UHGV virus genome: UHGV-0293664
Origin: a virus
DNA length: 64,000 nt
Reading direction: 5' to 3' (one strand)
In this document: piece after piece, positions 16,723-56,201 of the stretch
Layout: every line of letters begins with the position of its first letter
How positions within the stretch are numbered: the first letter of the stretch is position 1
Notes under the pieces: model-generated
The model's database searches: none
Told to the model about the DNA's origin: nothing
The model's input: only the letters and a program-made list of their open reading frames with translations
Translations under genes and position numbers: made by a program

Positions 16723-17712
16723 TTATTTAACGTGTTTGAAAATACCTGCCAACTCGGTCATTGTCATGCGGGTGGTCTTCATAAGATCTGTCATAGCTTT
16801 CTCCATAATTGGGGATACTACCATAAAGTTTCCTTTAGTGAAACCTTTATTCCAGTCGGTCACCAACAGTGGTTTAAGTCCAGCTCCGAGACGTTCACCA
16901 GTTAAAGCACAACATTTTCGAATGTATGTGCTCTTAAACTGGCTGAATGACAGATCCACTTTCATACCTGCATCGTAGAACGTCTGGCAATAGAAAGTGT
17001 AAGCTTTGGCAATCTCAACATCGTCAGGCAGTGCAGGAACCTCTTCTGTAAGCTCTTCTTCGACCCCTTGAGGCTCTTTTTCCTCTTCGTAAGCCTGTTG
17101 CGTCATCTCTTCAATCTCCTCTACTACAGGCTCGTTTACAATGTCAGAAATGTGCTTGTTGGCTCCACGATTAGCCATGAAGTTTTTAAAATCCTGCATT
17201 GGTGACATATCTTCCTCCCATTCTTCGTCAAAGAGTGCCAGTTTATCCTCTTCCGTTCCATATTGCAAGATGAAATCTTCAAAAGTGTAATCACCTTTCA
17301 ATTTCTCCATACGCTCTTCGCTCAGGTGGAGCATCATCTGCTGGACAATTTTTCGATCAGTTTTGTCTTTAATCAAGACTGCGGTCTTTTTATCTACCAG
17401 ACAGTCCTTTAGAGAGTTGCATCTCAACCCTACCACACAACAGTTATCAACCGCATAAGGGCCTTCATCATCTATCCGCTCTAGAGATGGGTAGAAAGGA
17501 TTTCCCAGTCCGTTTTCATCCGTGTGCATGTCGAAAGGTATAAGGGTATAGTCGCATACTCCATCTCCTAAAAGTTTTTTACCAAATAGGAGATATTCTT
17601 CCCATGACAGGTTGAACTCTATATCTCGTTTCCGTGCATTATTCTGTTTGCGTCTGTATTTTTTGAGCAAGCGCTCTAACTCTTCTGGTGTATAATATTT
17701 TTCAAGATTCAT
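16723..17712 (-). CDS. hypothetical acidic protein
   Basis: ORF track start at 17778 is TTG and overlaps a minus-strand promoter; ATG at 17712 (MNLEKYY...) lies downstream of that promoter. Confidence 0.7.
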   Translation of the reverse strand: MNLEKYYTPEELERLLKKYRRKQNNARKRDIEFNLSWEEYLLFGKKLLGDGVCDYTLIPFDMHTDENGLGNPFYPSLERIDDEGPYAVDNCCVVGLRCNSLKDCLVDKKTAVLIKDKTDRKIVQQMMLHLSEERMEKLKGDYTFEDFILQYGTEEDKLALFDEEWEEDMSPMQDFKNFMANRGANKHISDIVNEPVVEEIEEMTQQAYEEEKEPQGVEEELTEEVPALPDDVEIAKAYTFYCQTFYDAGMKVDLSFSQFKSTYIRKCCALTGERLGAGLKPLLVTDWNKGFTKGNFMVVSPIMEKAMTDLMKTTRMTMTELAGIFKHVK

Positions 17713-17743
17713 GAGTTGTCTCTTGTGCTCTGTGGGTGGAGAA

Positions 17744-17772
17744 ATCTTACCAAGGGCCTGGGAAGATGTCAA
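17744..17772 (-). promoter_or_regulatory. sigma70-like promoter for minus-strand operon
   Basis: TTGACA-17 nt-TAAGAT on minus strand. Confidence 0.6.
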
Positions 17773-42545: not shown

Positions 42546-42874
42546 CAGAGATCATCGTTTCAACTGCAGGGTATGTATTCCTGACAATCATTGCGTTGGC
42601 TATTCTGGTGGCGGTGTATGGATTTGTTATCCTGCCTATTCTTGAGACATTTAGTTTGTGTCGGTGTTGGAGAAAAGCTTACGGACCACAACCGTGGAAA
42701 GACTGGTTCCATTTGGTGCGTATAGCGTTCTCTTATGCCTATGACCACTCTAGCAGTGCATGCGTAACTGGGTACCATGCCTACAACTGGAACTGGGAAG
42801 GGCTGGGGAGATGGACTGTTACAAAAACTATACCCTTACGGTTGTACAAAGGAAAGAACACACTGGGAGCCTGA
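42542..42874 (+). CDS. putative membrane protein
   Basis: 110 aa; hydrophobic N-terminal segment; SD AGGGGA. Confidence 0.7.
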   Translation: MTEIIVSTAGYVFLTIIALAILVAVYGFVILPILETFSLCRCWRKAYGPQPWKDWFHLVRIAFSYAYDHSSSACVTGYHAYNWNWEGLGRWTVTKTIPLRLYKGKNTLGA

Positions 42875-43182
42875 TATTTTAAGTTATCAGGTTGCCAGAG
42901 ATCAGGAGGATTTCTAAAATGGATTTCCTCCTTTTGATATTTTACCTGCCAGGATATTTTAAAATCCTTAGAAAATCAGAAAATGGATCGAAAACTAAAA
43001 TGGATTTTTCAGGGCAGGCACGACGAGATGAACCACTCATCCTGTCGTTTGCACCATATTCCAGACCACCATTACAGATTTCCCGCACATGCTTACATCC
43101 TTCTACTGGAACTTCCTCCGCTTGCCCTTGACCTTTTATGGTAATAATCCAACCACTATCTTGAAGTTGCGATGCAGCTTTT

Positions 43183-43372
43183 CAGGTACTCGATCTGTTT
43201 TTCGTTTCAAAGATTGAATTTTCTGAAAATTTTTCTCGATAAATTTCTCAGTACTCGATCTGTTTTTCGTTTTCTGAATCGGATTTTCTGGAAATCGTTC
43301 CGGCTCTCGACCTGAAATTTTTGGGGACGAAATCGATTTTTCGTTTTCAGAAATGGATTTTTAAAATTTCTA
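43183..43372. repeat. degenerate tandem direct repeats (~65-bp unit, about 2.5 copies), iteron-like
   Basis: TACTCGATCTGTTTTTCGTTT at 43187 and 43252, partial third CGATTTTTCGTTTTC at 43333; GATTTTCTG/GAATTTTCTG sub-repeats. Confidence 0.6.
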
Positions 43373-43477
43373 TATGGGAATATTTTATGGGATACTGTTT
43401 TATAGGAAATTGTTACGGAGGGTAATTAGCGTGCTAATTAAATTTATGAAATGCGAGGAGTTCTCATTTAGAATTTT

Positions 43478-43700
43478 GAATGATAATCATTCTCGTTTGC
43501 AGAATAACGGGCACCCCCGGTGATTGTCTCCCGGCCCCTGTTGCCCCGGCTTGTTATTATAGTATCACACAGGACAAAGAAAGCAAGGACTTTTTGCATA
43601 AATTTTTAGACGATAATGATAATCGTTCTCATTTCATGCAGCGCCCATCCCCGGTGGTTGTCTCCCCCGTCACCGGTGCCTGCCGTCCTTTCGATATGTA
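43478..43700. repeat. tandem duplication (~120-bp unit) each carrying a GC-rich box ...CCGGTG(A/G)TTGTCTCCC...
   Basis: Both units start GATAATC.TTCTC.TTTC; boxes at 43510-43550 and 43641-43688. Confidence 0.6.
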
Positions 43701-43838
43701 TATTGTGCCACCTGGCGGGGCCGCTGTCAACACTTTTCAAAAAATTTTTCTAACCTGATGCGCTAACCGTTGCAACCTGGCGGGGCCAGCCTGGCAGGTC
43801 CGCGTTATAAAGTAAACAGCTACGGAAGAGGTACAAAA

Positions 43839-43988
43839 ATGAAAGGTAATGCTACTCGCCTGGAAAATGTAGTAATTGATGATACGGAAGCTATCGCCCT
43901 GGTCGAGAAGGTTGAAACGGAAGCGCGGGAACATAAAGAAGAGTACGAAAAAATGGTAGTTAACCTGGCGGGGGCGATTCTATCATAA
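43839..43988 (+). CDS. small hypothetical protein (49 aa)
   Basis: ATG 43839 after GGAAGAGG; the longer track ORF from 43770 starts inside repeats. Confidence 0.5.
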   Translation: MKGNATRLENVVIDDTEAIALVEKVETEAREHKEEYEKMVVNLAGAILS

Positions 43989-44088
43989 AAATAATTTAAA
44001 ATAATCGTTGACAGCTCGGACAGCTATTGTTATTCTTATCCTCGCAAGGTGAACAACACCACACCAATTAACAGAGAGGATAAAAATC

Positions 44089-44286
44089 ATGAACGCCTAC
44101 GGAATTAAAGTACGTCGCAACACCCGCCAGGTGGTCACCGATCAAATGGTTTGCCGGGTGGATGTAACCATCAACAACGGGCAAGGCCTTTATAAATTTC
44201 GTCGCGGTCATAGCTATACCCTGCAGCAGCTTAATCGTTGCGCCCTGACAAAAGGTCAGATCAACCACTGGTTTAATAAAAAATAA
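44089..44286 (+). CDS. early small protein
   Basis: 65 aa; SD GAGAGGA. Confidence 0.75.
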   Translation: MNAYGIKVRRNTRQVVTDQMVCRVDVTINNGQGLYKFRRGHSYTLQQLNRCALTKGQINHWFNKK

Positions 44287-44289
44287 ATA

Positions 44290-44318
44290 TTGACATGTAG
44301 TCTGAAACAAAATATACT
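44290..44318 (+). promoter_or_regulatory. sigma70-like promoter
   Basis: TTGACA-17 nt-TATACT. Confidence 0.65.
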
Positions 44319-44350
44319 GAAAGCACAAAAGACACTAAGAGGATAAAATC

Positions 44351-44749
44351 ATGAAAACCACAACCTTTAATTTTGACAATGCTAACTTCTCTTTTTCTGA
44401 TGTTAAAAGCTGCCGCCGTGATCGCGGATTCTACAAGGCCTATAATCTGGTTGTCTTGGACGATGATAATAATTTGCACGAAGTAGCGGAGATCCGGTAC
44501 TATGCCGCCGCCAGCGGTAACACTCACTACTGTGTATTTTGGATTCACGACAACAAGAACAATAAGTACGGTTATACTGGCGGCAAGGCGAGCGGTCACG
44601 GTTATGATAAAGCCAACGCTGCACTTGAAAGCGCATTAAGTGCCATGGGAATCACTGCCGACGGCTGGATCTATGAAGAAGAGTTTTTGGCGGCACTTGC
44701 TAACCGCTTGGGCTATAAAAAGCACATTGTAACGTGCGCCCACGAATAA
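44351..44749 (+). CDS. early protein
   Basis: 132 aa; SD AAGAGGA. Confidence 0.75.
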   Translation: MKTTTFNFDNANFSFSDVKSCRRDRGFYKAYNLVVLDDDNNLHEVAEIRYYAAASGNTHYCVFWIHDNKNNKYGYTGGKASGHGYDKANAALESALSAMGITADGWIYEEEFLAALANRLGYKKHIVTCAHE

Positions 44750-44838
44750 AAAAAAAAAATTATTGACACGCTGCAAAATTAAAGTAAACTAGACACAAAA
44801 GGCGGGAATATTTCCCGCCAACACAAAGGAAAAAGATC

Positions 44839-45243
44839 ATGAATAAGAACGTACGCCGCATCATGAACGAGTTGGCAAACGATGAAAAAATTATTGACAT
44901 GCATTTGATCAACATTTGCCGCCGTTGTGTAACATATAACAACCGCGCCGCAAAAGCGCGTGAGATGAACGCAAAAGGTACCTTAAAGCCATTCCAGGTG
45001 GTGGTAAAGGCCATTAAAGATGTAACTAATACGGCAAACCAGGTACAGGGGAACACCAACGAGAGTACCAATATTGATCCGTCTTACGTAATGAAACGGA
45101 TCCGGACTTGCAAGAATAAAGAGCAGGTGTATAACGTCATAGATTGGCTGGACTCCCTGGGTGATGTGGTTTACAATAGGTTTTCTGCAGCTATCGAGAT
45201 CCAGCTTGACAGATTAGACGGGAAAGTACTAAAAACTTATTGA
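44839..45243 (+). CDS. early protein
   Basis: 134 aa; SD AAAGGAAAAAGA; preceded by TTGACA box and GGCGGGAAnnTTCCCGCC leader hairpin. Confidence 0.75.
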   Translation: MNKNVRRIMNELANDEKIIDMHLINICRRCVTYNNRAAKAREMNAKGTLKPFQVVVKAIKDVTNTANQVQGNTNESTNIDPSYVMKRIRTCKNKEQVYNVIDWLDSLGDVVYNRFSAAIEIQLDRLDGKVLKTY

Positions 45244-45290
45244 GTTTATTTTTAGATGGCCTTGACTTCAGGGCCATCAATAAAGTAAAC
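45244..45290 (+). repeat. conserved post-stop hairpin element, copy 1
   Basis: TTTATTTTTAGATGGCCTTGACTTCAGGGCCATCAATAAAGTAAAC; 7-bp stem GATGGCC/GGCCATC. Confidence 0.6.
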
Positions 45291-45323
45291 TAACCACAAT
45301 TGAGCGGAAAAGGAGGCTTAAAG

Positions 45324-45443
45324 ATGAGCACTACACGCCAGCACACAAAGGTAACTATTATCGTTTGCATCATTGGTTACATCCTGGCGCAAATGTTGAT
45401 GAGTAGCGCCAACAGTTTTGCAAAATTTTTCTTAAATTTTTAA
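45324..45443 (+). CDS. possible small hydrophobic peptide (39 aa)
   Basis: ATG after AAGGAGG; MSTTRQHTKVTIIVCIIGYILAQ...; not in ORF track. Confidence 0.45.
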   Translation: MSTTRQHTKVTIIVCIIGYILAQMLMSSANSFAKFFLNF

Positions 45444-45471
45444 TTGACAAGCTAACCCAAATCGGTATACT
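45444..45471 (+). promoter_or_regulatory. sigma70-like promoter
   Basis: TTGACA-16 nt-TATACT. Confidence 0.65.
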
Positions 45472-45522
45472 TAAACACGTAAACGGGAAAACTTCCCAAA
45501 ACACACAAAAGGAGAAAACACC

Positions 45523-45864
45523 ATGACTACTATGACCGCCGAAGAAAAAGCCCTGCAGATCGCCGCTCTGAAAAAACAGATCGCAGACCTTGAGAATAAG
45601 ATCGATAACTTTGAAATCGACGAGGACAAGTACGACGAAAACTATGATGAATGGCTAGACGAGGTTTATGGCGAAATTATGATCGGAAACATTTCTTTTC
45701 TTCCGTCGCGTATCCTCAAGGAGTTAGATCCTATCGCTTACCGCTGCGGATTTAGCGACTACATCGACAGCCTGGATATTGAGGACGATGAAGAGTACCA
45801 AGAATTGCAGACAGAGATTGAAGAAGTGAAAGAAGAGCTTTCAAAGCTGGAAGAAAACGAGTAA
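45523..45864 (+). CDS. early acidic protein
   Basis: 113 aa; SD AAAGGAGAAAA. Confidence 0.75.
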   Translation: MTTMTAEEKALQIAALKKQIADLENKIDNFEIDEDKYDENYDEWLDEVYGEIMIGNISFLPSRILKELDPIAYRCGFSDYIDSLDIEDDEEYQELQTEIEEVKEELSKLEENE

Positions 45865-45912
45865 AATTTATTTTTAGATGGCCTTGACTCCAGGGCCATC
45901 AATAAAGTAAAC
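45865..45912 (+). repeat. conserved post-stop hairpin element, copy 2
   Basis: AAATTTATTTTTAGATGGCCTTGACTCCAGGGCCATCAATAAAGTAAAC. Confidence 0.6.
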
Positions 45913-45954
45913 TTTATACTGTTAACACTGAACTACTGCAAAGGAGTTAAAACC

Positions 45955-46200
45955 ATGGCAGCACTAATCACCAAGTATTATGCCCCTACTAACACCAAAA
46001 GCGCCCGTATCATGGTAAAAGGCTTCGGACGTAAAAAGGTTTACACCTGGGATTATGCCTTAGATACGGAAGACAACTACACCAACGCGATGACCGATTT
46101 TATTAATGAGCTGAACACGCGGATCTTGACAAATTATAAAATTACCGATATTGCCTATATAGGGGAAGGCGGGATCTGTTTTGTCGGTATCGTCAAATAA
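45955..46200 (+). CDS. early protein
   Basis: 81 aa; SD AAAGGAG. Confidence 0.75.
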   Translation: MAALITKYYAPTNTKSARIMVKGFGRKKVYTWDYALDTEDNYTNAMTDFINELNTRILTNYKITDIAYIGEGGICFVGIVK

Positions 46201-46275
46201 ACTATTTTTTCGGTGGTCCTGGCTGCAGGGCCATCTATAAAGATAATTTATTAACACCGTGAAAGGAGAAAGTAC

Positions 46276-46629
46276 ATGATCAGCGGGGCTAGTTTTATTA
46301 TTGGCGCTATTGCTACGGCTTTAATTGTAAACAAGATCCAATCTAAAAACGAAAAAGATAGCAACGCGCTCACAGAATACCCATTTTGGGTATTCAACGA
46401 CAACGAAGACTACATAATCAAGTACAAGAATGAGAAGGGCGACCAGGTAACACCGCGACCGATCCCGGCTTACAAAATGCAAGAAACACTATACCGCCTA
46501 AAGGCTGGAGGCGCAAAAATCGTAGACTTTTGGGGATATGATTGCAAGGATCAGGAGGTTATAAAACGGCGTATCCGGGCGATTCAGGCAAATATCGAGA
46601 TCAGTAAGGGGGGAAGTTATGAAAATTAA
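46276..46629 (+). CDS. early protein with N-terminal hydrophobic segment
   Basis: 117 aa; SD AAAGGAGAAAG. Confidence 0.75.
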   Translation: MISGASFIIGAIATALIVNKIQSKNEKDSNALTEYPFWVFNDNEDYIIKYKNEKGDQVTPRPIPAYKMQETLYRLKAGGAKIVDFWGYDCKDQEVIKRRIRAIQANIEISKGGSYEN

Positions 46630-46816
46630 TTTCGAAAAAATTGTAAAGCGCCCCCACGATTCCGAAGAGCTGCCGGAACGCCGCCAGCGCAACAATAAAC
46701 TGAATAAACCGAAAAGATTTGGGAAGATCTGGCGGAATCATTATGATCGTAAACTGCCTGGCCTACTCTTGGAACGTGAACGACAGGCGGAACGATACCG
46801 CCACAAAGGCAAATAA
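46619..46816 (+). CDS. small basic protein
   Basis: 65 aa; SD AAGGGGGGAAG; overlaps upstream stop. Confidence 0.6.
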   Translation: MKINFEKIVKRPHDSEELPERRQRNNKLNKPKRFGKIWRNHYDRKLPGLLLERERQAERYRHKGK

Positions 46817-46824
46817 CAACCAAC

Positions 46825-46853
46825 GCCCCGCCATTGTGCGGGGCTTTTTATTT
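46825..46853 (+). terminator. intrinsic terminator
   Basis: GCCCCGC-CATTGT-GCGGGGC then TTTTTATTT. Confidence 0.8.
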
Positions 46854-46997
46854 CTATCCTACGAATAGCGCCCCTGGTTGGTCCCACAAACGCCACAAAA
46901 GCCCCTACCTATGCAATCCCCTTTCTTAGTCTGAAAACATCGCCCAGGGCCGTTTTATGGTGTTAAAAATAGCATTGACAGTGATTTTATTTAAAGC

Positions 46998-47026
46998 TTG
47001 ACACCTTGGAATAGCCCAGATATACT
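46998..47026 (+). promoter_or_regulatory. sigma70-like promoter
   Basis: TTGACA-17 nt-TATACT. Confidence 0.65.
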
Positions 47027-50856: not shown

Positions 50857-50911
50857 ACCTGGCGGGGCCGAAAAGGCCCCCAATTATGAAAATAAAGAGA
50901 GGTAAATCATC

Positions 50912-53656: not shown

Positions 53657-53685
53657 AAGGGGCTTAAAGGCCCCTTTCTTTTTGT
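53657..53685 (+). terminator. intrinsic terminator closing the plus-strand early block
   Basis: AAGGGGC-TTAAA-GCCCCTT then TCTTTTTG. Confidence 0.8.
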
Positions 53686-56201
53686 CTGCTCTTCTCCTAC
53701 CATAAACGGCCCTACCTGGCAAGTGGAATAATTGACTAGCCATCAATCCCACACACTGTACAAATATACATGGAAAATAACTATTGCATAATTTTTCATT
53801 GTGTGGTAGCAAGTCCATTTTTACCCGTTTTCTCTCCCAAAATTGCACGTAATGCCGCTATTGCACAAATTTTAACCTGATGCACATCTCCAATATCTTG
53901 TCAACAACTAAAAATCTTTATAAGTCATACACTTACACAGCATCGAAAGCGTGTTCTACGCGAAAAATCGAGTATAACTATAGCCGCCAGATCTCAGAAT
54001 TCACGTACGCACACCATTCTATAGTCCGCTAAGTATTTATTCCAACCACAGAATAACGGAATAGTCAATACCTGTACAAAATAATTATTCGTATAAACTG
54101 CATAACATAAACCTGTCCAGGTGTCAACATTTTTCGTAAACAGTCTGAAATTGTCACGATAGGTTACTATAATCAGAGAAATCTTTAGTCGTCTAATGTT
54201 TACTGCACATAACTATACTGACTGGAATCATTAGATGACTAATAGAAAGATAAGAAATAGTTAACAATGTAATTGTTTTACCTGTAACAATAAGGCAACT
54301 ATGCAAACGAATGTCATGGCGCGACGGAGTCGCGACATAATATAAAAGCAGTAACCATCACCCCCGTGATAGTTTGTCTGCAAACTATTAATCAGATCAT
54401 AGTTGCCTTGTATTTAGTTAATCATGACATAACAAGCAAGGCAACTATAGATCTGCTAATAGTTGCCCTGCTTTTATATTATGTCATATATTATTAACCT
54501 GTTAATTGTCAGCTTGTTGGATGTTAGCTTGTCAATTATTAACTTGCTAATTGTTTTCATGCAAACGAATGTCATGGCTGATTATTTCTATGTAAATGGT
54601 TTGTTCGTAAACAGTTTATTCGGGAACAGTTTATTCGGGAACAGTGAGGCATGCAATAGTAACAATTGTTATTGTATCCAGTGTGTTGAGTATGCCCAGT
54701 GTGTCCAGTATGTCAGACAAGTTTTTCCTCTCTTTGTCAAGTGCCGCATTAAAAATTTACAAACTGGTATGGTAGCATTTTTGCGGCCCTGTTTACATTC
54801 AGCAGTGTATGTATAACCCTTGTTGTGTGGGCGTTTAGACGTCTAGACGGTTGGAAGTCTACAGGTCAATATCTAATCTATTGGCTGCTAACTATATCCC
54901 ACACAAATAGTAAGAAATATGATTGTTATATGCGTAAACTGTAACTCATGTTATCAATCCCTGTATGTATCGCCAGTGGTTCGCATAATGGGTATTATGT
55001 TAAATTGCCAGTAATGATAACGATTCTCACAATGATAGGTATTCTCATTCATCCACACAAAATAGTTTGCAAATGTTGTGCCACTGTGTGAACGGCCTGG
55101 CCTATTAATTTCTCTCACTGCCTCGATATTTGAGAATTGTTATAAGAATGAGAAGTATTCCCATTCCGTCCGCCTGGCAGCGCTCCTGTAGGTCCTGCAA
55201 GGACTCTAGCTGAAAGCTAGACCCTTCGGGCCTCCCTGTAGGTCAGGTCAAAATCGTGGTAGAATTGGGCCTGTTCAGATATTTCTGGCTGACTCTTCAG
55301 GTCTGTGTGGGAAAAGCCAACCTCTCCGGCGGGGCAGGGGGTCATGACGGTAAAATTGCAGGTCAATTAAAAAATTTACGTGGTGTATGAAGCGCTCTTC
55401 AGGTAAGGCAGGTATTATGGGATGAAACCCTCTTCAGGCAATGATATTTGTGGGTGTGATATTTGCTGGAAAGCCAGATATGACGGGACTCCCGGCGGGG
55501 CAGGGGTAGTACAGACAGGGGAAATATGGGGGATGTGGTTGGGGAAATTGATCAGGCAGGAAGAGTATGGAATATGTTACAGATATGTTAAATATGAAGG
55601 TAGGATATTTGTAGGATTTGTGTGTAAAATCAAAGACTTAAGTGGTGTTGTGGTATTTTCTATAAATAATTCAAGTTTAATAGGCAATATTTGTCTCTAT
55701 CCGCTTTGTGTGGTAAACAGATTCAGATGAGATTGGTTTACAGGTGTATACATAATATACAAATTAAAGATACAAGAAACCCCCCTCCCCCTTCGGCTAC
55801 CATTCACCTTTTCCTCTGACTGGTACTTAAACACTTATTCAGACTCTTCAGGTTATCACCCATATATCATATGGCAGTGACTGGTGTCCTCCGGCCCCTC
55901 TTTCGTCACCCGTCCGCTTCGCCATGCTAATGCCATAGCCAAATGTTCGGTTGTTCACCCTGTTCACTCAGGTGTATCTCCATACCCCTTCAAACCGAAG
56001 AGAACAGAAAACCCGAATTACTCGGTAAAAGAAAAGAGAAGAACTTAATTTTATCAGGATAGGCAAGAATGTCAAGGCATGACTGCTCACTAAACAAGCA
56101 AACAGTCATGTGTGGGAGGTAAGTGATTGTGGTGGTAGGAAATTTAGTTGAAAGATGTGTTATAGGTGCTCCAGCACTTTATCCAGGCAGCTAATTGTGT
56201 G
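53686..56201. other. 2.5-kb non-coding, AT-rich, repeat- and palindrome-rich region at convergence of plus and minus transcription
   Basis: No convincing ORF; direct repeats, large inverted repeats and tetraloop hairpins (see findings). Confidence 0.7.

Follow-up and report, generated by a model that had tools for sequence, protein, structure and literature searches.

A candidate composite control region with an iteron-like repeat array at the inner border of the early block in rV5-like phages

Iteron origins such as lambda ori, P1 oriR and plasmid oriV are built from direct repeats of 17-22 bp that lie in the same orientation and at helical phasing, with an adjacent initiator gene of the Rep, O or RepA type and with boxes for DnaA or IHF. 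Transcription-activated origins, among them the T7 primary origin, T4 oriF/oriG and the ColE1 RNA II/RNA I system, have tandem promoters and, downstream of them, an AT-rich stretch without a gene. Here we describe a tandem repeat array at positions 43186-43390 of a 64,000-nucleotide stretch of UHGV virus genome UHGV-0293664 (the window) that is iteron-like in form yet matches no known origin family. Sequence comparison supports the view that the array is part of a single composite control region of non-coding DNA, putatively cis-acting, that lies at the inner edge of an early gene block. Tentatively, and with less than even confidence, we read the array itself as a candidate transcription-activated replication origin or early-block boundary element.

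The likeness to iteron origins extends from the phased direct repeats to an adjoining AT-rich, easily melted region with predicted bent DNA, to a second cluster of short repeats a few hundred base pairs off and to the presence of different repeats at one site in different lineages. In contrast to iteron origins, the units here comprise a core of ~38 bp and a linker of 25-40 bp, no initiator gene can be recognised beside the array, and DnaA and IHF boxes are missing. We do not file the array as an iteron origin because the initiator gene and the DnaA/IHF sites fail and the units are far longer. The label "iteron-like repeat array", given to the locus in an initial annotation of the window, is a fair description of several phased repeats in one orientation.

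Repeat array and conserved non-coding blocks

The window region has matches in 122 phage records (80-99% identity), almost all from Vequintavirus, the rV5-like Escherichia coli myoviruses with genomes of ~137 kb. The array lies in a gap of 964 bp (42875-43838) between an open reading frame (ORF) that ends at 42874 and an ATG at 43839. To the left, on the plus strand, a long cluster of larger genes occupies ~18-42.9 kb (the "replication module" of the initial annotation). To the right begins an early block of small ORFs, each with a near-consensus sigma-70 promoter upstream (TTGACA, 16-17 nt, TATACT), which ends at a terminator at 53657-53676. The gap had been described as ~950 bp without a convincing ORF, and a comparison of nine vequintaviruses (alignment A1) agrees, in that no reading frame in the region has a coding signature. 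Its left part and the array comprise the following features.

42872..43012, plus strand: left repeat block, with three copies of GATATTTTA and three of AAAATGGAT; 31% GC
~42904..42935, plus strand: intrinsic terminator of the upstream cluster, hairpin AGGAGGAUUUCUAAAAUGGAUUUCCUCCU followed by UUUGAUAUUUU
43013..43185, no strand: variable spacer, 173 bp, 47% GC, without a conserved motif in Vequintavirus
43186..43250, plus strand: repeat unit 1, 65 bp, with GTACTCGATCTGTTTTTCGTTT, GATTGAATTTTC, GAAAATTTTTC and TCGATAAATT
43251..43324, plus strand: repeat unit 2, 74 bp, with GTACTCGATCTGTTTTTCGTTT, GAATCGGATTTTC and CTCGACCTGAAATTTTTGG; 80% identical to unit 1
43325..43390, plus strand: repeat unit 3, degenerate, with GGACGAAATCGATTTTTCGTTTTCAGAAATGGATTTTTAAAATTTC and an internal dyad symmetry ACGAAA/TTTCGT

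We identified three copies of the array repeat (family D1) at 43186, 43251 and 43325, with spacings of 65 and 74 bp, in agreement with the ~2.5 tandem copies of a ~65-bp unit first reported. Measured over 50 nt against the reference copy, copy 2 is 80% and copy 3 60% identical. Copies 1 and 2 have the exact 22-mer GTACTCGATCTGTTTTTCGTTT in common (43186 and 43251), and an exact 22-mer repeated 65 bp apart is not chance; exact matches to CTCGATCNNTTTTTC occur at 43189 and 43254 only in the whole 64 kb. The repeat search returned all three copies; Tandem Repeats Finder (score of at least 30) missed the 65-bp period, as the copies have diverged too far. A terminator scan flagged 43317-43354, within and around the third unit. 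The 65-bp units run on into a far larger conserved block (43186-43800).

The left block contains AAAATGGAT at 42916, 42980 and 42997, where the next base is T, C and T, respectively, just as the AAAATGGAT(T/C) repeats had been placed at 42910-43010; the repeat search added three copies of GATATTTTA (42872/3, 42935/6 and 42953) that were absent from the earlier list. Within the 64 kb, the motifs of the left block and of the array are essentially restricted to the locus. The hairpin and U-run of the terminator are kept, by folding, in 9/9 vequintaviruses, and phage SYGMH1 has another sequence that still forms the stem (GAGGGAAAAU...AUUUUCCCUU), a compensatory change. Because the first AAAATGGAT copy sits in the terminator loop, it is at least partly explained by the terminator. 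The repeat search found no inverted repeats longer than 23 nt. At the edge of the block, an inverted repeat with 14-bp arms (42863-42898) overlaps the stop codon of the upstream ORF and is followed on the minus strand by a U-rich run; the rV5 clade carries a different hairpin with a U-rich tail at this place. The 42863-42898 hairpin may be a terminator for minus-strand transcripts. This upstream edge is also a hot spot for inserted genes in relatives (loci L009, 1130-1705; L014, 899-1486; L020, 552-1223), the inserts being a Clp-protease-like ORF in SYGMH1 and HNH endonucleases in PVP-SE1 and Aeromonas phage 2L372X.

Within Vequintavirus, identity to rV5 is 0.936 for the left block (42903-43012), 0.659 for the spacer, 0.947 for the array (43186-43374) and 0.96-0.98 for 43375-43800, compared with 0.81-0.97 for twelve flanking ORFs, so that the repeat blocks match the best-preserved of these genes. 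The spacer carries frameshifting indels of 1 and 2 bp in alignment A1. The locus thus consists of two strongly constrained non-coding blocks with a freely drifting spacer between them.

A megablast search from the window reaches other genera only over ~70 bp (~43461-43531). The full layout is retained in phages FENT2 (Enterobacter), Kashira (Serratia), PVP-SE1 (Salmonella), BIS47 (Klebsiella), CR9 (Cronobacter), Av-05 (E. coli), Hena1 (Erwinia) and LNA4 (E. coli), in the shared order of GATATTT repeats, variable spacer, three tandem units of 63-78 bp, Fur-box-like palindromes and a GC-rich element. The array of three units is found again in seven other Vequintavirinae lineages (8 loci besides the window); it is known from Vequintavirus, Seunavirus, Mydovirus, Certrevirus, Avunavirus, Henunavirus and Serratia phage Kashira, and an Aeromonas Plateaulakevirus has two units together with Fur boxes. 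An alignment of 27 units yields a core of ~38 bp, GTTCTCGATCGnnTTTTCAnnTTCnARATCGTATTTT, followed by a linker that carries GAAAAAATTTTT in most units; in a strand-specific count of 6-mers, CTCGAT and GATATT/ATATTT each occur at least three times in 8/9 Vequintavirinae loci. Absence of the repeats from related phages had been named as a result that would speak against a control element; they are present across the whole subfamily, which favours a cis-acting element. Three spaced CTCGATC motifs were also sought among viral contigs, but the more than 120 contigs returned were mostly unrelated and the result was uninformative.

Mean identity between units is 0.73 within a genome versus 0.67 between units of the same index across genomes, values that do not support unit-by-unit orthology across genera. 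What is conserved is a motif and a copy number, not one-to-one units. The Stephanstirmvirinae (phAPEC8, alia) keep the Fur boxes and downstream parts and have other repeats (ATTATTTAAAGTTTTT, TGAAAAnnAAAA) at the array position. Such lineage-specific repeats at one site are the pattern expected if each array evolves together with a binding protein of its own lineage. In the window the core of the repeat is CTCGATCT, versus CTCGATCG in other genera, a difference that fits the absence of CGATCG from the 64 kb (0 copies versus 7.6 expected). Eight palindromic hexamers are missing from the window, including CGATCG, GGCGCC, GCTAGC and CCGCGG, which looks like restriction-site avoidance.

In a plasmid collection, the sole match to the locus was a vequintavirus-like 137.6-kb "plasmid", and no plasmid iteron relatives turned up. 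This PLSDB entry (CP057073.1, positions 17378-17748, 96.8% identity) is recorded as a "non-mobilizable plasmid" of 137,565 bp; the E. coli isolate came from pooled cattle faeces. Evidently a vequintavirus genome was assembled here along with that of its host, reflecting a carrier state or a contamination.

The array has a GC content of 31-33%, and the 300-bp stretch 43193-43492 (31% GC) is the fourth least stable of the 64 kb, the three less stable ones all lying at 54.0-55.9 kb around the terminal repeat described below. Segment 43168-43293 has curvature rank 5 among 126-bp windows (z = 4.0 in a first-order wedge model that used provisional parameters), and the predicted curvature fits in-phase A-tract/T-tract junctions. 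The unit spacing of 63-78 bp corresponds to roughly 6-7 helical turns. RNA folding of 43186-43320 gave no signal relative to shuffled sequence (z = +0.6 and +1.0 on the two strands); for 43310-43440, which includes the dyad-rich third unit, the z-score is -2.2 on the plus strand and -3.2 on the minus strand. Because the array is AT-rich, meltable and predicted to be bent, and has neither an RNA-fold signal nor a conserved frame, it presumably acts as DNA.

Fur boxes, opposing promoters and genome position

Beyond the array, the conserved block contains Fur-box-like palindromes, GC-rich elements and predicted promoters on both strands.

43449..43469, no strand: degenerate copy of the Fur-box-like palindrome GAATGAGAAnnnTTCTCATTT, which in other genera stands before the main Fur box
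43476..43494, no strand: Fur box 1, TTGAATGATAATCATTCTC, 15/19 to consensus
43476..43505, plus strand: predicted promoter TTGAAT-18-CAGAAT, overlapped by Fur box 1
43509..43549, no strand: GC-rich element 1, GGGCACCCCCGGTGATTGTCTCCCGGCCCCTGTTGCCCCGG, C-rich on the plus strand, with four G-runs on the minus strand
43559..43586, minus strand: putative weak promoter TTGCTT-16-TACTAT, read from the sequence
43612..43630, no strand: Fur box 2, GATAATGATAATCGTTCTC, 17/19 to the consensus GATAATGATAATCATTATC
43641..43688, no strand: GC-rich element 2, a duplicate of element 1
43702..43730, minus strand: predicted strong promoter TTGACA-17-CACAAT with an upstream TG, pointing toward the Fur boxes and the array
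43710..43787, plus strand: ACCTGGCGGGGCC copies at 43710 and 43775 (motif search), with further copies at 43963 and 50857

Fur box 2 is the only site in the window with at most three mismatches (0.03 expected), and no convincing plus-strand -10 element accompanies it. Fur box 1 hardly varies among phages of E. coli, Serratia and Aeromonas; 16 nt in and beside it, ATAATCATTCTCGTTT (43483-43498), are identical to a part of the E. coli K-12 fhuA promoter that lies 35-50 bp upstream of the start codon and is known as the fhuA Fur operator. In 12/12 loci, which belong to Vequintavirinae, Stephanstirmvirinae and an Aeromonas phage, Fur boxes are found at the same relative place (1-5 per phage). By sequence they qualify as putative Fur operators. 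As in the Fur-regulated host promoters of fhuA and ryhB, a 19-bp palindromic box overlaps a predicted promoter and boxes stand in tandem in some relatives. Unlike those of fhuA and ryhB, the boxes here belong to a strictly virulent phage, no obvious iron-related gene follows them in Vequintavirus, and further Fur-like boxes occur in the terminal repeat. In total, the window holds seven Fur-like 19-mers versus 0.8 expected: three at the locus, three in the terminal repeat (55013, 55031 and 55147) and one at 45347. With six of the seven at the locus or the terminal repeat, they bracket the early block. The 19-mer at 55147 is within ~30 bp of the terminus. A BLAST search of 5,426 E. coli genomes with the Fur units gave no match at E <=10, the database being too large for matches this short, and the exact 30-mer of the Fur-box promoter had no match in 185,579 bacterial and archaeal genomes.

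A Fur box and a GC-rich element together form a ~135-bp duplicated unit (spacing 134-136). GC-rich element 1 is invariant in alignment A1 except at two dinucleotide sites and has a counterpart in all genera; by eye, the variable CC/GG and GT/AC sites show no covariation in this alignment. The ACCTGGCGGGGCC copies belong to a 13-mer, ACCTGGCGGGG(C/G)C, with four exact occurrences (43710-43722, 43775-43787, 43963-43975 and 50857-50869) and six matches at up to two mismatches versus 1.25 expected. Its copies usually abut a -35-like hexamer, and a similar GC-rich spacer, CCTGGCGTGGCCC, lies inside promoters of other genera.

Including the window, a strong minus-strand promoter is predicted at the same relative place in 11/12 loci, matching 9-12 of 12 consensus positions; the Aeromonas phage lacks it. 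Six loci from 5 genera have a second minus-strand promoter (TTGATC-16-TATTAT or TTGCAA-17-TATATT) another ~150 bp along, at relative position +107 to +110; its window counterpart is the putative weak promoter at 43559..43586. A third adjoins the array in Seunavirus, Mydovirus and Kashira. The minus strand has no ORF of 30 aa or more at 43089-43467, so these predicted promoters appear to serve no gene there.

Between the first two minus-strand promoters, other genera carry a conserved non-coding element of ~110 nt, CTACCGGCGATCCACCTT...TTAGCCCCGCC..., in which CTACCGGCGATCCACCTT is followed by a covarying hairpin, TTAGCC and a GC hairpin, and which ends at a plus-strand terminator-like hairpin. 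Many Vequintavirinae, Stephanstirmvirinae and Aeromonas phages have it (for example at ~2630-2745 of the FENT2 locus L012, at ~2650-2735 of L013 and in 23/28 IMG/VR loci, L024-L051); the window lacks it and has the duplicated Fur-box unit in its stead. Folding energies favour the minus strand in 14/16 sequences, and UUCG loops and wobble pairs of a possible long-range helix favour the plus strand. The element has no Rfam match; a search of the window likewise found no family (best E = 0.26 and 2, far under gathering scores), nor was anything significant found in L012 and L013.

Direct terminal repeats of vequintaviruses measure 458-459 bp (PMC6563267, PMC7471380). The 459-bp repeat annotated in phage Gotham (MT682716) corresponds by homology to window positions ~54716-55174 on the minus strand, and the gap was on these grounds rejected as a physical genome end, terminal repeat or packaging site. 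Given this placement, 11.3-12.3 kb separate the locus from the left physical end, which puts it at 8.3-9.0% of the ~137-kb genome. The homologous region is at ~11.1-12.4 kb in the records of EdH4 and HdK5, as far from the start of the record as in Gotham, and hits at ~11.3-12.4 kb were seen in these and other records. The DNA around the terminal repeat (54.0-55.9 kb) is the least stable and most AT-rich of the window.

The right border of the gap is formed by the early block.

43839..43988, plus strand: first early-block ORF, 49 aa, PHROG 21957, no assigned function
44008, 44290, 44763, 45444, 46998, 47312 and on to ~53.2 kb, plus strand: consensus sigma-70 promoters of the early block, from promoter prediction

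A 47-48-bp segment at ~43797/43798 is missing from the window, PMBT16, FV3, naswa and SYGMH1 and present in rV5, JeffSchatz, navn and typing phage 4. In the last three it supplies the -35 of a TTGCAA-17-TATAGG promoter before the first early ORF; the rV5 -35 reads TTATAA, and the first early ORF of the window has no obvious promoter of its own. Exactly at the locus, GC skew falls from ~+0.15-0.2 to ~0 and AT skew climbs to ~+0.2, a shift that persists through the first 4-5 kb of the early block (43000-47000) with the coding strand unchanged.

Origin, switch or boundary

We infer DNA binding, transcription and origin function at the locus throughout from its sequence. As a candidate transcription-activated origin, the array would be the easily melted, intrinsically bent and protein-bound part. 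Host RNA polymerase would start at the minus-strand promoters, cross the G-rich and Fur-box segments and enter the AT-rich units, where transcription would open or prime the duplex for the phage primase-helicase and polymerase. Fur at its operators and the opposing plus-strand Fur-box promoter would modulate this transcription by iron supply. We rank this reading first because gene-less promoters are predicted to fire into an AT-rich, bent, repeat-structured segment, because the repeats differ in sequence between lineages within one constant architecture, and because the opposing promoter would give an antisense transcript as in ColE1.

The comparison with the T7, T4 and ColE1 origins rests on the tandem promoters, here predicted, and the gene-less AT-rich stretch downstream of them. 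As in ColE1, the transcript of an opposing promoter, again predicted, would be antisense to the 5' part of a long transcript, and the other genera, which have a plus-strand terminator right at the start of the minus-strand transcript, resemble the ColE1 geometry further. Unlike in those systems, the promoters here are predicted to be of the host sigma-70 type, and the AT-rich part is a structured repeat array, not a simple AT run. To our knowledge, Fur control has no precedent in origins of this type.

A more elaborate version seems to us improbable: host Fur and the sense/antisense promoter pair would gate transcription into the lineage-specific array, which would serve as an origin or as an entry or early-to-middle switch, so that the start of replication is coupled to host iron. 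In this version, one such iron-sensing arrangement would span virulent phages of at least two subfamilies and an Aeromonas genus, with the Fur boxes at the very end of the terminal repeat bracketing the early block.

Several observations weigh against the candidate origin. GC and AT skew in rV5 were reported to change only where the direction of transcription changes (PMC3606486), and not at this locus, and cumulative GC skew in the window is still rising through 43 kb. No initiator gene could be recognised beside the array: ten neighbouring proteins were tested and all belong to families without an assigned function. The neighbours and a ~275-aa upstream protein of other genera matched only function-less PHROGs and had no significant Pfam match, apart from a single sub-threshold one, Remorin_N (18 bits versus a cut-off of 23.2). 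The initial annotation had suggested binding of DnaA or IHF; at 42.8-43.9 kb we found neither the DnaA box TTWTNCACA nor the IHF consensus WATCAANNNNTTR. GATC (Dam) sites are not clearly enriched in the manner of oriC, with 4 sites in the locus versus ~5 per kb across the window. The units far exceed the length of classical iterons, the minus-strand promoters are consensus matches only, and the curvature estimate carries the caveat of its provisional parameters. The non-template strand has suggestive G-runs at 43509-43549 and 43641-43688; they make the putative minus-strand transcript markedly G-rich in Vequintavirus and not in other genera, and an R-loop step has no general support because of this limit. 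For no relative has an origin been mapped, and no description of a Fur box, an origin or a transcript map for this phage group was found in the searchable literature.

Transcriptional control alone, which we regard as possible but doubtful, would assign the locus no replication role. The units would bind H-NS- or Fis-type proteins or a phage early protein and, together with static bends, form an iron- or time-dependent switch acting on the Fur-box promoter at 43476-43505, the first early promoter, and on the opposing promoters. The array lies 100-330 bp upstream of that plus-strand promoter, is strongly AT-rich and predicted to be bent, and holds the only exact copy in the window of the high-affinity H-NS nucleation motif TCGATAAATT (43236-43245, in unit 1; motif from PMC2094087). 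A Fur operator that overlaps a promoter is the classical geometry of repression, and the locus sits exactly between a terminator and a promoter-rich early block. However, the TCGATAAATT site of unit 1 is not retained in other genera, and the array is too far upstream for direct contact with the polymerase. Many other early promoters downstream lack an array, so the array could control just one, and the left block 250 bp away and the tandem promoters on the gene-less strand would be left without explanation.

By analogy with phage T5, the locus could mark a boundary of genome entry, where a repeat region would end the first-entering, first-expressed segment and either pause transfer or supply inward-facing promoters through which host RNA polymerase helps pull in the remaining genome, as in T7; we think this unlikely. 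Repeat Region 3 of the T5 injection-stop region is also an untranslated region of ~1-1.2 kb at ~8% from the left end, bordering the first-expressed genes (10.1101/866236). It has many direct repeats with helical phasing and bending, is conserved above many neighbouring ORFs and carries clustered boxes for a host DNA-binding protein (10.1101/866236). The position at 8.3-9.0% of the genome compares with 7.9% for the first-step segment of T5 (10.1101/866236). The interval from the locus to the terminal repeat consists wholly of small genes with consensus sigma-70 promoters, boxes for Fur occur at both of its ends, and the minus-strand promoters face away from the early block, into the remaining genome. 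Against this, two-step entry has never been reported for rV5-like myoviruses, and the two regions share no sequence similarity. T5 has 10-kb terminal repeats and paired DnaA boxes within long inverted repeats (IRD'spacerIRC'), whereas the rV5-like phages have a 459-bp repeat, Fur boxes and neither DnaA boxes nor long inverted repeats of the IRC/IRD kind. Several related genera are also reported to be circularly permuted (PMC3475682), which, if correct, makes a fixed distance from the end meaningless in them.

Still less likely is that the repeats are RNA modules of a ~0.7-0.85-kb minus-strand or plus-strand transcript, a non-coding RNA acting as a decoy or antitoxin mimic such as the pseudo-ToxI of phage phiTE. 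Like our array, pseudo-ToxI consists of tandem, intergenic non-coding repeats in a Vequintavirinae phage, and a Certrevirus uses tandem RNA repeats against ToxIN (PMC3475682). Predicted promoters on both strands, the minus-strand hairpin with its U-rich tail (42863-42898), replaced by another such hairpin in the rV5 clade, and the covarying hairpin in the ~110-nt element of non-Vequintavirus relatives would suit an RNA gene. However, that structured element is missing from the window, pseudo-ToxI is a structured RNA of 36-nt ToxI-related units as opposed to 65-74 bp here, and the array has no fold signal on either strand and no Rfam match. By eye, the unit has no apparent similarity to ToxI. 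The phiTE escape locus also has another position, next to tRNA genes and ahead of the terminase gene, and homology with it was rejected on that ground.

That the region holds ordinary small protein genes, as in records for rV5 (gp193, gp194) and JeffSchatz (bas55_0098 to bas55_0100), is very improbable: automated and manual annotations do place ORFs of 31-95 aa here, but the records conflict (some give 3-5 tiny ORFs and four annotators leave ~1 kb empty), ORFs in 42892-43217, including those of the spacer, are broken by stops and 1-2-bp indels in alignment A1, ORFs of the conserved blocks survive on both strands in several frames that overlap, a sign of constraint on the nucleotides and not on coding, and the 92-aa ORF (rV5 gp193) is built from the duplicated Fur-box unit and has no counterpart in other genera because that unit is single there. 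The possibility raised initially, that relatives might express the region as ordinary genes, is thus not supported.

Implications for rV5-like phages

The Fur operators, the inward minus-strand promoters, the terminator with its AAAATGGAT copy, the position at 8.3-9.0% of the genome and the conserved block at 43186-43800 all go beyond the initial annotation. No origin or early-control element has been defined for the rV5-like phages, which are widely used in cocktails for phage therapy and for the biocontrol of E. coli O157, Salmonella, Klebsiella and Cronobacter. The locus offers a compact and deeply conserved candidate for an origin or early switch that is open to deletion, cloning and footprinting. 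It also bears on annotation, as many GenBank records fill the region with small hypothetical proteins that comparison does not support.

We found no description in the searchable literature of iron sensing by Fur operators in strictly lytic phages. If the conserved operators are functional, these phages would read the iron state of their host, which would be relevant in the iron-poor gut and in infection. Should the candidate origin also prove real, the start of replication could be tied to host iron status, a link that would matter for iron-dependent nucleotide synthesis.

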